The notes under the pieces: generated by a model
Database searches by the model: none
What the model was told of the DNA's origin: nothing
The model's input: only the letters and a program-made list of their open reading frames with translations
Virus record (IMG/VR): IMGVR_UViG_3300031257_000001
Span: 1-64,000 of that record
Source of the DNA: a virus
DNA: 64,000 nt
Reading direction: 5' to 3' (one strand)
Translations under genes and position numbers: made by a program
Part shown: positions 22,325-27,127 of the stretch, one piece after another
How the letters are laid out: each line of letters starts with the position of its first letter
How positions within the stretch are numbered: the first letter of the stretch is position 1

Positions 22325-24186
22325 GCGACGGCAATGCAGAAGTGGTCAACTTTGAGAGCGCCAGCCGGAGCGCAGACGGGGCCAATCGGAAAGCTCTGCG
22401 CAAGATCCGGGCGCGTGTCATCGAGGTCAACACAGAGAAGGCGGGAACCTCCCCAAGCGGATTGACAGGTGCCACCGCGAAGCCTGGCAAGAGCGAGGCG
22501 CCTCCCGAGGAGCCATTCCACACGCTGGCCCGGAAGGGTCTGGTCATCGAGCCCCCATTTGATATGCTCACGCTCGCGATGCTCGTGGAGCACAACAGCG
22601 AGCTGGGACAGTGCGTGGAGGCGATGGAGACCAACATCGACGGGACCGGGTTCAGGTTCATCTCCCGTTTGAAGTTGGACGACATCCCGCGTGACAAGCT
22701 GCCGTCGGAGGGCGGTGACGCCCCACCTGACGCTCCGAACCCAGAGATGACGCGCGCCTTGCGCGAAAAGACCAGGCTGACCAACTTCTTCACCTATTCC
22801 ACAGAGGAAAGCTTCACCAAGTTCAGGCGCAAGCTACGGCGCGACCTGGAGACCACTGGCAACGGCTACTTCGAGGTGTTGCGCAACGAGAAGGGCGACG
22901 TTCAGGGCTTCACCCACATCCCGTCCTACCAGATGCGGCTCGGGAAGTTGGAAGATGAGCAGCGACTTGTGGAGCGCAAGATTCTGGAATTGCAGGTTGA
23001 TGGCAGCGTCCAGATCAAGACACAGAAGGTGTGGCGTCGCTTCCGGCGCTACGTCCAGAGCCGGGCCATCCACCGTCGCAGCCTGTCCACAATCGAGGGG
23101 CACAAGGTCAGATGGTACAAGAGCTTTGGCGATGAGCGGGACGTTGACAAGCGTGACGGCCGCTATGCGTCGGAGGGCAAGCCTGTCGATGGCGACCAGA
23201 GAGCCACGGAGATCATCCACCTGAGCTTGTACAGCCCGCGCACGCCATATGGGCTGCCCAGGTTCATCGGGAACCTTTTGGCCATCTTTGGTGATCGGGC
23301 CGCTGAGGAGATCAACTACATCACATTCAGAAACAACAACATCCCGTCCATGGTCGTGTTGGCCTCCAACGGGCAGCTCACCGAGGGGACGATCAAGCGC
23401 ATTGAGAGCTTCGTGGAGAGCCAGATCCAGGGCTCCGACAATTACAGCAAGTTCCTGATCATCGAGGCGGAGCCGTTCGGTGAAGAGGGTGAGGACGGAG
23501 GGCAAGTCAAGGTTGACATCCAGCCGCTCACCAAGGACCAGCACCGGGACGCGCTGTTCCAGAACTACAGCCAAAACAACCAGGACAAGATCAGGCGTTG
23601 CTTCCGTTTGCCACCCATCTTCGTGGGGCGTTCCGATGACTACACGCGCGCGACTGCGGAAGCGAGCCGCCGTCTGGCCGACGAGCAGATCTTCAGTCCC
23701 GAGCGGGATGAATTCGACACTGTGGTGAACCGCGTCTTGTTCCCAGAGATGGGGATCCGCTTCCACCGCTTCAAGAGCAACAGCCCGAATACGACGGACA
23801 ACCAGCAGCTGGTCCGAATCCTCGCCGGCGCTGAGAAGACAGGCGGTATGACTCCACGCATCGCCCGGGCCATGCTGGAGGACATCCTGGGCATCGACCT
23901 CCCCGGCTTTCCGGAGGGCTTCCCTGCGGATTCGCCGTTCAGTTTGACAATGGCTGAAGCCGTCAAGAACAAGGGTGATGCGTCGGAGCCCGGGCAGCAG
24001 GTGACGGCGTTGAAGGCCATCGAGCAACTCACCGGCGGCGACCTCCTGGACTTCGATGACGACGATGAGAGCCTGCTGTCGGTGGCCAAGAAGCTGATGG
24101 CTCTCCAGAAGGCGGCAGAGGTGGCATGGCGCGCCAAGCTCGCCCGGGATGGTGAGCTTGATGAACCTGGCGCCGGCGCCGACTGA
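22321..24186 (+). CDS. Portal protein (PBSX-like)
   Basis: Follows TerL; DLETTGNGYFEV, YGLP, FRNNNIP, FRLPPIFVG...RATA. Confidence 0.9.
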   Translation: MSDGNAEVVNFESASRSADGANRKALRKIRARVIEVNTEKAGTSPSGLTGATAKPGKSEAPPEEPFHTLARKGLVIEPPFDMLTLAMLVEHNSELGQCVEAMETNIDGTGFRFISRLKLDDIPRDKLPSEGGDAPPDAPNPEMTRALREKTRLTNFFTYSTEESFTKFRRKLRRDLETTGNGYFEVLRNEKGDVQGFTHIPSYQMRLGKLEDEQRLVERKILELQVDGSVQIKTQKVWRRFRRYVQSRAIHRRSLSTIEGHKVRWYKSFGDERDVDKRDGRYASEGKPVDGDQRATEIIHLSLYSPRTPYGLPRFIGNLLAIFGDRAAEEINYITFRNNNIPSMVVLASNGQLTEGTIKRIESFVESQIQGSDNYSKFLIIEAEPFGEEGEDGGQVKVDIQPLTKDQHRDALFQNYSQNNQDKIRRCFRLPPIFVGRSDDYTRATAEASRRLADEQIFSPERDEFDTVVNRVLFPEMGIRFHRFKSNSPNTTDNQQLVRILAGAEKTGGMTPRIARAMLEDILGIDLPGFPEGFPADSPFSLTMAEAVKNKGDASEPGQQVTALKAIEQLTGGDLLDFDDDDESLLSVAKKLMALQKAAEVAWRAKLARDGELDEPGAGAD

Positions 24187-27127
24187 TCAGCTAGCCGACG
24201 CTGGTTGGTGGATTGGGTGCGAGATCTGCGCCCAATCATCGCTGGCCCTGTATGACATCCTAGTCATCTCTGACGAGCTGGTGGTCAAAGGGTTGCTCGT
24301 TCCGGAGATGGCACAGATTGCGCGCAACGAGGACCGCCTGCGCCAGCTCCTGCTCGCACAGTGGCGCGTGAGGTCAAAGCAGGCGGTCGAACGCTCGCAC
24401 GCGGTCTGGATGTCCAGCGGGGACCTCGCTGCCTCGATGGCGGCCGTGGACGTCGTGATGTCCAAGTGGGCAGATGACGTCAAGGGCCGATTCACACAGG
24501 GGCTGATCGACATCTACACGTTGGGTCGTGAGGCGGGAACGAAACGGGCCGCCGGCATCATCACGCGGCCGCTGGACTACACTGTCGGCAACTTCACCGA
24601 GCAGCTGGGCGACCAGGCGCGCATCGCCAAGGCGACTCCGCGAGTGGCCACGGCGTTCGATGTGTACGATGCTTCCGCCGTCACCGCGTTGATGGATGAG
24701 CAGATGTTGTGGATCGGCCGTCACTACGGTGCGAACGTCAGCGAGACCATCCGCCGTTCGGCGCGTGAGCAGATCGTCGGGCGCGGCCTGGGCCGGCGCG
24801 AGGCCGGGAAACTGCTGCGTGATGACGTGGCACGCAACCTGGATAAAGTGACCGTGCCCAAAGGCTTCAACGGGAGCCAAGCCAAATATTTTGAGGGGCT
24901 GGCTGCCAACGCCGCAACCATCGGGAGGGTCCGGGGTCAGATTCGTTCGTTCCAGGACTTGGGTGTCACACGCTACGTCTTGTCCAACCCGATGGACCGC
25001 AGGACCACGCGCCAGTGCATCCACATGAACGGGAAGGTGTTCACGGTCCAGAACGCTGTCAATCAAATTGAGCGGACCGCCGGGGCGACTTCCCCGGACG
25101 ACATCAAGCGTGACCATCCGTGGCTCTCCATGTCACAGATCCTGGCCGTCTCGCCTGTCGCTGGCCGATCCACGGCCGCCGATTCGGGGAAGCTTGCAGC
25201 GGCCGGCTTCTCGCTTCCACCTTTCCACTTCCGTTGCATGCCAGGATCCACCACAGTCCAAGGCCAAGTAGAGATGGTCTCAAAGAGGCTCTACTCTGGT
25301 GAAATCGTGGAAATACTTACGGAAAGCGGCAGACGAATTGCCTTGACGCCCAATCACCCCGTACTTGCCGTACAAGGATTTGTCTCTGCTGAGTCTGTTC
25401 ACAATGGCATGGATCTTGTCTGCTACAAGATCAGGACGGAACGGCTTGCGGTCGGGACCGGCATTAGCCTCAACGTACAGAACAAACCAGCCGCTGTCCA
25501 GCATGTATTTGAGTCGTTGTTTGTAGCGTTCGACAGACTTGTGATTCGGCGGTGCCCCGGAGACTTCTATGGCGAATCGGATGTTATGGATGGCAAAATC
25601 CACGTTGTATCTGTGGATAGCAAATTGTCTGGTGAATTGAAGACCAGATTTCAAGAACGCATCATTGAATGCCGCCTCAATTTTGGAGAATCTGCCGCGC
25701 GTCCAACATCTGCTTTGGGCCGTGTTGGCTCTGGCGATCATCTCTCTGTCTCCAATTGTTCGAGTGCGGGCAGCACGCCAGGCTGCACCGCATTGTCTTG
25801 TGATCAATTCAACTCTATTCGGAGCAGATTTCACCCTGAACCACTTGATAGCGTTTGCTTCGGACCTGCCTCTGATCTTGGCGCCTTGTCTCCTGAGGAA
25901 GGACACGACAGCGTTCTCAGAGACTCCGTGCAGCTGGCCAATCGACTTAGGGGACTTTCCGGCCTTGTAGAGTTGGATCGTGTCGTTTCCGTCAGGAGGT
26001 TCCCATTTCGCGGCCATGTGTATGATCTCCAAACCAGAACTGGTTGGATCATAGCCGAAGGAGCATTCATAAGCAACTGCCGTACCACCGTGGACATAGC
26101 TCCGGGGCAGACGGCATTCAAGCCTCTCACTGCGCAAGAACAGCGGCTGACCATTCCTGCCAAGCCACGGCCGACTCCCAAGCCACGGCCGGCCGTTGCC
26201 AAACCGCTCGCCAAGCCGAAGCCGACCAAGAAGCCCACGACGACACCGAGGTCAATGCCTGCCGCCAGGAGACCGGCGACGATGCCGCCGGTGGATCCAC
26301 TGGCTGTGTTGCAAGCTCCCGTCAACAGCTTCAAGCCACTGGGTGGTGGTGCGAATTCATCCGAGCTGCTGGAGCTTGAAAACGGCATCAGCGTCGTGTG
26401 GAAGCCGGCCGCTGGCGAGAGTGCCACTCTGACCGAACATGTTGGCGGTGCGCTTCACAAGCGCGAGGCTGCTGCGTACCAGATTGACCAGATAGTCGGG
26501 ACCAATGTTGTACCGAGGACGGCGCTTCGCAAGTACGGCGGCGAAGTCGGGAGTGTCCAAGAGTTCATCGGTAGCGCCGTTGAGTTGGACATGGCATCTC
26601 CGGCAGCAATTGCTTCTGCTTCAGCCAACTCTGCACAGAGGATGTCGCTTCTTGATGTGATCATCGGGAACACCGATCGTCACTCGGGCAACGTCATGGT
26701 GGCAAAGATCGGAGGGAAGCAGCAATTTGTGGCGATAGACAACGGGTTCTCCATGCAGCAGTCAGCTCAGCTTGTTCGTCGCTGGTACTATAACGGTGAA
26801 GCCTCATACGAGGTGTCAAAGAGCAAGGCGTTGGCGATGTTCGATTTCAGACCGTTGGCGGCTAATCTGGAGGCTGCATCGCTGGCTGATACGGCGGCCG
26901 CCCTCGCGGCGAGTGGCGTTGAAAGAGACGCAGCCACGCAGGTTGTCGGGAGGCTGGCCGCATTGAAGCGCCACCCCATGGCGTTGCACAGGACGGTAGC
27001 CGGCGCCGAAGGTGAGTCCCCTGCGTTGTACAAGACGAAGGATTGGGTGGGTGGTGAATGGAAGGCTGGGCTGTCTGCTGCTGACACAAAGGCCATCCAA
27101 ACTGCCATAAGTGGTGCGTACAAATGA
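24161..27127 (+). CDS. MuF/gp7-type minor head protein with intein and C-terminal PI3/4K/HipA-like kinase domain
   Basis: D.RTT..C..MNG and PPFHFR|intein|CRTTV; Pro/Lys linker; GGGANSS, VWKP, REAAAY, DVIIGNTDRHSGN, IDNG. Confidence 0.85.
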   Translation: MNLAPAPTDQLADAGWWIGCEICAQSSLALYDILVISDELVVKGLLVPEMAQIARNEDRLRQLLLAQWRVRSKQAVERSHAVWMSSGDLAASMAAVDVVMSKWADDVKGRFTQGLIDIYTLGREAGTKRAAGIITRPLDYTVGNFTEQLGDQARIAKATPRVATAFDVYDASAVTALMDEQMLWIGRHYGANVSETIRRSAREQIVGRGLGRREAGKLLRDDVARNLDKVTVPKGFNGSQAKYFEGLAANAATIGRVRGQIRSFQDLGVTRYVLSNPMDRRTTRQCIHMNGKVFTVQNAVNQIERTAGATSPDDIKRDHPWLSMSQILAVSPVAGRSTAADSGKLAAAGFSLPPFHFRCMPGSTTVQGQVEMVSKRLYSGEIVEILTESGRRIALTPNHPVLAVQGFVSAESVHNGMDLVCYKIRTERLAVGTGISLNVQNKPAAVQHVFESLFVAFDRLVIRRCPGDFYGESDVMDGKIHVVSVDSKLSGELKTRFQERIIECRLNFGESAARPTSALGRVGSGDHLSVSNCSSAGSTPGCTALSCDQFNSIRSRFHPEPLDSVCFGPASDLGALSPEEGHDSVLRDSVQLANRLRGLSGLVELDRVVSVRRFPFRGHVYDLQTRTGWIIAEGAFISNCRTTVDIAPGQTAFKPLTAQEQRLTIPAKPRPTPKPRPAVAKPLAKPKPTKKPTTTPRSMPAARRPATMPPVDPLAVLQAPVNSFKPLGGGANSSELLELENGISVVWKPAAGESATLTEHVGGALHKREAAAYQIDQIVGTNVVPRTALRKYGGEVGSVQEFIGSAVELDMASPAAIASASANSAQRMSLLDVIIGNTDRHSGNVMVAKIGGKQQFVAIDNGFSMQQSAQLVRRWYYNGEASYEVSKSKALAMFDFRPLAANLEAASLADTAAALAASGVERDAATQVVGRLAALKRHPMALHRTVAGAEGESPALYKTKDWVGGEWKAGLSAADTKAIQTAISGAYK
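25235..26077 (+). mobile_element. Intein (281 aa) in the MuF HxxCR motif
   Basis: N-terminal Cys (CMPGST), block B LTPNHPV, block F VYDLQT, ends ISN followed by Cys+1. Confidence 0.88.
25280..26017 (-). CDS. HTH plus DUF559/Vsr-like PD-(D/E)XK endonuclease encoded antisense inside the intein
   Basis: LYKAGKSPKSIGQLHGVSENAV; SKIE...FTRQFAIHRYNVDF...AIEVSG...LDSGWFVLYV; RBS GGAGATCATACAC-ATG on the minus strand. Confidence 0.8.
   Translation of the reverse strand: MAAKWEPPDGNDTIQLYKAGKSPKSIGQLHGVSENAVVSFLRRQGAKIRGRSEANAIKWFRVKSAPNRVELITRQCGAAWRAARTRTIGDREMIARANTAQSRCWTRGRFSKIEAAFNDAFLKSGLQFTRQFAIHRYNVDFAIHNIRFAIEVSGAPPNHKSVERYKQRLKYMLDSGWFVLYVEANAGPDRKPFRPDLVADKIHAIVNRLSRDKSLYGKYGVIGRQGNSSAAFRKYFHDFTRVEPL

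Follow-up and report, generated by a model that had tools for sequence, protein, structure and literature searches.

An intein in the MuF-like head gene of an uncultured salt-marsh virus carries a predicted Vsr-like nuclease gene on its opposite strand

Inteins with a homing nuclease normally encode it in frame. Here, we describe an intein in a phage head gene whose opposite strand carries a second gene, for a protein with a predicted helix-turn-helix (HTH) and a Vsr/DUF559-like nuclease domain. The stretch under study (the window) comprises positions 1 to 64,000 of the IMG/VR record IMGVR_UViG_3300031257_000001, a complete 104-kb record of an uncultured virus from salt-marsh metagenomes. A preliminary description of this DNA had placed an intein with normal splicing blocks at 25235-26077, had seen no LAGLIDADG or HNH motif in its middle and had proposed that its homing endonuclease is encoded on the antisense strand. 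The observed layout is confirmed, and all coordinates hold. That the homing-type nuclease of the intein is a separate, overprinted antisense gene is supported by the family and the predicted fold of the antisense protein, by the conservation of the arrangement and by the pattern of substitutions. The two genes consist of the following parts, in which an arrow marks the splice junction.

25235..26077, plus strand: class-1 intein of 281 amino acids (aa), with Cys1, block B T38-P-N-H41, block F H261-VYDL, Asn281 and a +1 Cys.
25235..25432, plus strand: N-terminal Hint core, intein residues 1-66, predicted local distance difference test score (pLDDT) 93-98; lies opposite the C-terminal tail of the antisense nuclease.
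25613..25957, plus strand: sense 'linker', intein residues 127-241, which would be translated in the precursor and has no conserved fold of its own.
25955..26077, plus strand: C-terminal Hint part, intein residues 241-281, blocks F and G, pLDDT 86-98, with the conserved GHVYDLQ...SN↓C.
25280..26017, minus strand: gene for an HTH plus Vsr/DUF559-like nuclease, 245 codons and TGA, in codon register with the intein.
25877..25996, minus strand: predicted HTH DNA-binding domain, approximately residues 8-47.
25289..25705, minus strand: Vsr-like nuclease domain, residues 105-243, with D140 at 25598-25600 and E151 at 25565-25567.

On the sense strand the insert reaches from a Cys codon at 25235 to an Asn codon at 26075-26077 and lies between PPFHFR and CRTT(VD). 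Pfam Intein_splicing matches it through its two ends only, and no Pfam nuclease family matches the sense insert at E<=1. This agrees with the preliminary description, which had seen no LAGLIDADG or HNH motif in the sense middle. The residues C1, H41, D264 and N281 are invariant across 45 relatives. In the predicted structure both ends have high pLDDT and form a Hint fold, while the linker stays below 50 at residues 132-204 and 217-225. The nucleophile, block B, the terminal Asn and the +1 residue, together with the predicted fold and the in-frame insertion into a conserved motif, assign the insert to the inteins.

The minus-strand open reading frame (ORF) starts with ATG at 26017 and ends with TGA at 25282-25280. 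In profile searches of both strands its 245-aa product scores above threshold against Pfam DUF559 (29.7 bits, gathering score 20.6, E 6e-7); a match to HTH_23 is weak (E 0.012). A profile of the nuclease family in turn matches the DUF559 structure 3HRL (E 1.1e-4), and in this profile alignment D140 and E151 line up with the D and the E of the 3HRL motif. Both residues are invariant in the family, with E114, Q131, Y137, N138, R168 and W177 nearly so, and the window keeps all of them. The structural model of the antisense protein (mean pLDDT 95.2, predicted template modelling score 0.78, no low-confidence segment) shows a Vsr-type restriction-endonuclease-like fold. The alignment to Vsr extends to residue 243, and therefore the tail that overlaps the Hint core is modelled within the nuclease fold. 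Judged by profile and modelled fold, the protein belongs to the Vsr-like/DUF559/EDxHD nucleases, which is the family proposed in the preliminary description, and its sequence identity to I-Bth0305I and E. coli Vsr is only about 22%.

The arrangement is conserved far beyond this virus. With the antisense protein as query, tblastn matched 102 GenBank phage records, at about 30% identity and with about 94% of the query covered. In every annotated record among the matches listed, the matching region falls within a gene for head morphogenesis, a minor capsid protein or a hypothetical protein. The matching records include 63 of Salmonella phages, most of which seem to be Jerseyvirus-like. Nine GenBank phages were inspected, with hosts in Salmonella, Gordonia, Pseudomonas, Cronobacter, Mycobacterium, Aggregatibacter, Pantoea, Vibrio and Idiomarinaceae. 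In all nine the nuclease lies on the strand opposite to the head gene, in register 0 and with both frames open. Only the record of Salmonella phage PK1 annotates the nuclease ORF and the other eight give the head gene only, so that the gene has apparently been missed in most of the 102 matching records. A profile scan of IMG/VR yielded 251 loci, of which 80 were fetched. The IMG/VR layout counts refer to these 80; 73 non-redundant loci were used for the codon alignment, 68 unique loci for starts and stops, 66 for promoters and 60 unique loci for chance, GC content and stop avoidance. In 80/80 loci the frame that opposes the nuclease match in register 0 is open, and the claim that both frames stay open over the antisense gene holds for the whole set. 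From extein codon usage, an open sense frame is expected in 4.8/60 unique loci and is observed in 60/60. Among the 68 unique loci the nuclease starts with ATG in 45 and with GTG in 10. This start lies opposite the block F His codon, 20 residues before the intein ends, and the stop falls on intein codon 16 or 18 in 49 loci. An exhaustive phmmer search returned 1357 cluster representatives at E<=1e-3 (484 at E<=1e-10). A single-protein scan of viral contigs found no relatives and a word-indexed protein search one only; megablast of the whole gene against phages gave no match.

The two frames stand in perfect register. Their triplets all start at coordinates equal to 2 modulo 3, and the genes are therefore antisense codon for codon, with antisense residue i opposing intein residue 262-i. 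Of the 281 intein codons, numbers 16-261 lie opposite the nuclease ORF, blocks B and F included. At its start, GGAGATCATACAC-ATG is the exact reverse complement of the HVYDL codons, as had been noticed for the ribosome binding site of this gene, and at its end the conserved tail G-x-YGVIG mirrors block B (TPNHP). Since the frames are codon-aligned, a single TTA, CTA or TCA in one of them suffices to place a stop in the other.

Which frame is the more constrained changes along the intein. In the codon alignment of 73 loci, antisense residues 21-135 are better conserved at antisense codon position 1 (0.44-0.49) than at position 3 (0.31-0.36), and aa identity there is 0.30-0.41 in the antisense frame vs 0.17-0.24 in the sense frame. 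Both frames are about equal at antisense residues 136-195. The order is reversed at residues 196-245, which lie opposite Hint residues 17-66 and where sense identity reaches about 0.43-0.55. An alignment guided by the sense translation led to the same outcome. Taken by domain, aa identity in the N-terminal Hint core is 0.43 for sense and 0.29 for antisense, and in the sense linker 0.20 and 0.34, respectively. Five independent close pairs (73-99% nucleotide identity) allowed us to count substitutions per strand, a comparison that the preliminary description had put forward. In the part that is nuclease only, 99, 61 and 182 substitutions fall on antisense positions 1, 2 and 3. Of the codon changes here, 119 leave the antisense residue as it was and 37 the sense residue, and 210 of 247 are non-silent in sense. 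The antisense frame is hence under purifying selection. Over antisense residues 196-245 the same pairs have 25 vs 22 silent changes, and the frames are equal. Sense codons 22-66 are free of TTA, CTA and TCA in 60/60 loci (28.5 expected); such codons then cluster at codon 16. Taken together, the patterns of conservation, substitution and stop avoidance identify the antisense frame as the coding frame of the intein middle, whereas the sense frame dominates in the Hint core and the overlap keeps both. Over the N-terminal Hint core both frames appear to be constrained.

The explanation that accounts best for all of these data, and which we regard as likely, is a MuF intein with a captured reverse nuclease gene that is expressed from an antisense transcript and mediates homing. 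The class-1 intein would be translated together with its MuF-like host protein and would then excise itself. A site-specific nuclease, made up of an N-terminal HTH and a Vsr/DUF559/EDxHD-type catalytic domain, would have had its gene captured in reverse between the two Hint parts of the intein. Selection would purge TTA, CTA and TCA, so that the nuclease gene stays intact and its mirror is read as a structureless intein linker. The nuclease gene is longer than this linker, as it starts opposite the block F His codon and its last approximately 50 codons run through the Hint core to intein codon 16. In these overlaps both strands would encode folded protein. The nuclease would be produced from its own antisense transcript, and since it lies on the opposite strand its expression is predicted to be uncoupled from the late head gene. 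In a co-infection it would presumably cut intein-free MuF alleles, and repair would copy the unit of intein and nuclease.

Several observations weigh against this explanation. The penultimate residue of block G is Ser280 and not the usual His, a trait (SN↓C) that most of the family share. Active inteins without a penultimate His do exist, and this His is not strictly defining. Four other salt-marsh samples carry the intein, and their short and shallow contigs contain no intein-free joint. A scan for sigma-70-type promoters found none on either strand of 24800-26600, and no RNA run is listed as carrying this sequence. Finally, the joint probabilities for open frames across the loci take these as independent, although they are related.

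Two candidate expression signals of the nuclease gene lie within the C-terminal end of the intein.

26024..26030, minus strand: Shine-Dalgarno-like GGAGATC, with GGAG 9 nucleotides (nt) ahead of the ATG; complements the Asp-Leu codons and the first Gln base.
26048..26076, minus strand: candidate promoter TTGCTT (26076-26071), 17 nt, TATGAT (26053-26048), within the last 10 intein codons.

Relatives that have their ATG on the block F His codon carry GGAG, GAGG or AGGA at the same place in 30/45 cases. The preliminary description had also matched the motif to the ribosome binding site of the early genes. This stands insofar as GGAGATC precedes four ORFs in the first 13 kb. The antisense copy is nevertheless dictated by block F and does not stem from the phage's own signals, because the motif recurs in relatives from unrelated phages. 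As to the early genes themselves, GGAGATC(A/G)GC followed by ATG is found upstream of four plus-strand ORFs of 117-352 aa, at 166, 2210, 2657 and 12244, with 6-8 nt between GGAGATC and the ATG. GGAGATC occurs 17 times on the plus strand and once on the minus strand (18 vs 10.7 expected), and it is possible that it serves as a shared translation signal of the early genes. The pair TTGCTT-17-TATGAT was spotted by eye and scores 8/12, which is under the threshold of the promoter scan. Among the relatives, a sigma-70-like pair of at least 9/12 is present in 21/66 loci vs 2/66 after shuffling, mostly at the same position. The same bases are constrained by the sense codons of blocks F and G, and for this reason we treat them as a putative promoter only. 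A terminator scan of 24800-26600 found none on either strand.

These signals invite a stronger proposal, to which we give somewhat less belief than doubt. The element may be a self-contained two-strand cassette in which the nuclease gene takes all its expression signals from the intein blocks that are conserved best, read in reverse complement. The -35 element would come from the Ser-Asn codons of the C-terminal splice junction and the -10 element from block G, with the Shine-Dalgarno sequence supplied by the block F Leu/Gln codons and the start by the block F His codon. Were this true, few natural examples of antisense dual coding with selection on both strands would be as extensive, and with more than 1000 protein clusters the cassette would also be widespread.

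The nuclease might also be expressed and yet be past homing. It could cut competitor genomes, act in superinfection exclusion or serve as an HTH regulator, with the intein as a fixed, vertically inherited passenger. Purifying selection shows that the protein has a function, it does not tell which one, and the lack of an intein-free allele in the four further samples of this population suits a fixed element. Several groups of VSR-like inteins look vertically inherited in a 2025 preprint (10.1101/2025.01.02.630785). The insertion site speaks for mobility. The intein sits inside a conserved ...H-x-(N/R)↓C-R... motif of the MuF-like gene, and the junction reads ...N↓CRC in 78/80 relatives, a single homing-type site in MuF genes of very different phages with hosts that include Actinobacteria and Proteobacteria. 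The closest MuF relative in IMG/VR (locus L091, 48% identity in the N-extein) is without the insert and reads PPYHFR-CRSTVD, PPYHFRCRSTVD. This uninterrupted sequence settles where the splice junctions lie and demonstrates the existence of alleles without the intein, which goes against a mere passenger. So does base composition, as intein GC lies below extein GC in 54/60 loci; in the window it drops from about 0.62 to 0.52 on entering the intein. We consider a nuclease that no longer serves homing improbable. One insertion site in many phages, an intein-free relative and the GC contrast fit a horizontal spread of intein and nuclease as a unit and lend homing indirect support. In the four salt-marsh samples the intein is identical and the flanking exteins show a few differences, which given the short contigs is a hint only.

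One locus departs from the common site. In Mycobacterium phage Sejanus (locus L006) the unit of intein and antisense nuclease is found at ...KVWV↓C...HN↓CTIDGKTRPSH and not at N↓CRC. The host frame is annotated as a capsid maturation protease and is open over 1028 aa, where the locus cuts the gene. This may be a switch of the extein site.

Long antisense ORFs can arise in the stop-poor register of a GC-rich gene, and the nuclease ORF could in principle be such an untranslated shadow or a decaying relic. Sixteen ordinary genes of the window contain six register-0 antisense ORFs of at least 245 codons. ORF length alone is weak evidence, because long antisense ORFs are common in a genome of about 60% GC, and the empty promoter scan would also suit a silent frame. 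With phage codon usage, the chance of an open frame over the nuclease gene is about 0.04 for sense and about 0.003 for antisense. What decides the matter is the evidence from relatives. Composition does not explain a DUF559 match above threshold, a model with pLDDT 95 and a Vsr fold, or 1357 homologue clusters. Changes concentrate at the antisense third position and are silent in the antisense frame far more often than in sense; core residues including the invariant D140 and E151 are kept, and GC is below that of the rest of the genome. A shadow ORF that is due to composition only is contradicted by these selection tests, and we regard the relic and shadow explanations together as very unlikely. 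Two further antisense ORFs of the window, of 397 aa (22834-24027, minus strand) and 247 aa (24374-25117, minus strand), oppose the portal gene and the MuF N-extein. They are probably typical of a GC-rich genome and illustrate that the length of an ORF proves nothing by itself.

Least probable of all, with hardly any room left for it, is that the sense middle is a functional new in-frame nuclease or DNA-binding domain and that the antisense similarity is merely its mirror. The sense frame is indeed open in every locus, contains conserved motifs such as DFHGD, and is predicted to fold with moderate confidence at residues 80-130 (pLDDT 74-90). However, the motifs conserved in sense complement the antisense catalytic motifs exactly, with DFHG as the mirror of AVEV and V-x-VV as that of YN-x-D. 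The sense middle has no match to any Pfam family, pLDDT falls below 50 at residues 132-204, aa identity is lower in the sense than in the antisense frame and most codon changes are non-silent in sense. A canonical intein with an in-frame LAGLIDADG or HNH nuclease is rejected on the same profile and pLDDT data, and a split intein or fractured gene is rejected since the intein lies within a single 992-aa ORF and has the nuclease on its other strand.

The host gene of the intein is the ORF at 24149-27127 (plus strand, 992 aa). It is the next gene after the portal gene, and a single frame runs through the intein. The ORF has a weak Phage_Mu_F match and several PHROG matches of the type 'minor head / head morphogenesis'. 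Relatives of the portal protein (about 32% identity) are scattered over phages of Rhizobium, Rhodobacter, Aeromonas, Bacillus and Streptomyces. The two exteins are:

24149..25234, plus strand: N-extein of the MuF-like head-morphogenesis (minor capsid) protein, with the Phage_Mu_F/PHROG matches; ends ...PPFHFR; start codon uncertain.
26078..27127, plus strand: C-extein, with a CRTT start, a Pro/Lys/Thr-rich linker and then a terminal domain with a PI3/PI4-kinase-like match.

The Pro/Lys/Thr-rich linker directly past the intein (26100-26300, plus strand) is where the contigs of two other salt-marsh samples diverge. Their loose ends lie at 26258 and 26264, with a cluster of differences at 26352-26413, and the intein is identical there. 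Further downstream, 26624-26765 (plus strand) matches PI3_PI4_kinase above the Pfam threshold (35.1 vs 27.1 bits) over residues 826-872 only, and the C-terminal region of the MuF-like protein has a weak LepB_N match. MuF proteins are known for variable C-terminal cargo domains. The kinase-like domain may be an ejected effector.

Nucleases inside inteins have been described before in several arrangements. In canonical bifunctional inteins such as PI-SceI and PI-PfuI the nuclease also lies inside Hint, at the same topological position and with the same presumed homing logic. There, it is a domain of the intein polypeptide, whereas in the window it is predicted to be a separate protein from the other strand. 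In the 'fractured genes' (Dassa et al. 2009, PMC2677866) a free-standing gene for a Vsr-like homing endonuclease lies between the halves of a split intein. These Vsr-like cases come mainly from phage and environmental DNA. They share with the window the intein-associated Vsr-like family and a separate gene at the usual point of endonuclease insertion. The difference is that they consist of three coding regions on the same strand with a split intein, while the window has a contiguous intein and an overprinted antisense nuclease. I-Bth0305I, the EDxHD family member, is encoded on the sense strand of a group I intron, and Vsr is a repair enzyme; neither has a counterpart of the N-terminal HTH and helical region found in the nuclease family of the window.

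Antisense ORFs within contiguous inteins are likewise not without precedent. As cited in 10.1101/2025.01.02.630785, anti-sense LAGLIDADG ORFs were reported by Gorbalenya 1998 and Gogarten et al. 2002, with Synechocystis DnaX and a Chloroflexus SpoVR-like protein as examples. From what is cited there, these share the homing-endonuclease gene opposite a contiguous intein and differ in that their nuclease is LAGLIDADG and that of the window Vsr-like. Closest to our case, Gosselin, Arsenault and Gogarten (bioRxiv 10.1101/2025.01.02.630785, October 2025 version) describe full inteins with anti-sense VSR-like endonucleases in actinobacteriophages. The host genes include minor capsid genes, whose inteins all have non-canonical endonucleases. 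Common to their inteins and the window are the contiguous intein, the Vsr-like ORF on the opposite strand inside it and the minor capsid host gene. Their examples are from actinobacteriophages and ours is from an uncultured salt-marsh virus. The family seen here also extends beyond their scope to phages of Salmonella, Pseudomonas, Cronobacter, Pantoea, Vibrio, Aggregatibacter/Haemophilus and Idiomarinaceae. A text search of the preprint did not turn up the exact codon register in every locus, the start codon and Shine-Dalgarno sequence built from block F, the overlap of the nuclease with blocks B and F with its two-sided constraint, or the spread well past actinobacteriophages.

The element is a clean example from nature of one set of codons that is read as a different protein on each strand, and selection can be measured on either. 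Annotation pipelines miss the antisense gene. The family can be diagnosed by register-0 antisense coding, a start on the block F His codon and the G-x-YGVIG tail that mirrors block B. Cultured relatives among the Salmonella Jerseyviruses and the Pseudomonas and Gordonia phages, such as the vB_Pae_BR313c-like Pseudomonas phage and Gordonia phage Malisha, make expression, splicing and homing experimentally tractable. The architecture itself is already known from the 2025 preprint, and the window is a further example of it, from an uncultured salt-marsh virus. Since the principle has been published, what our analysis adds to these known systems is breadth and anatomical detail.

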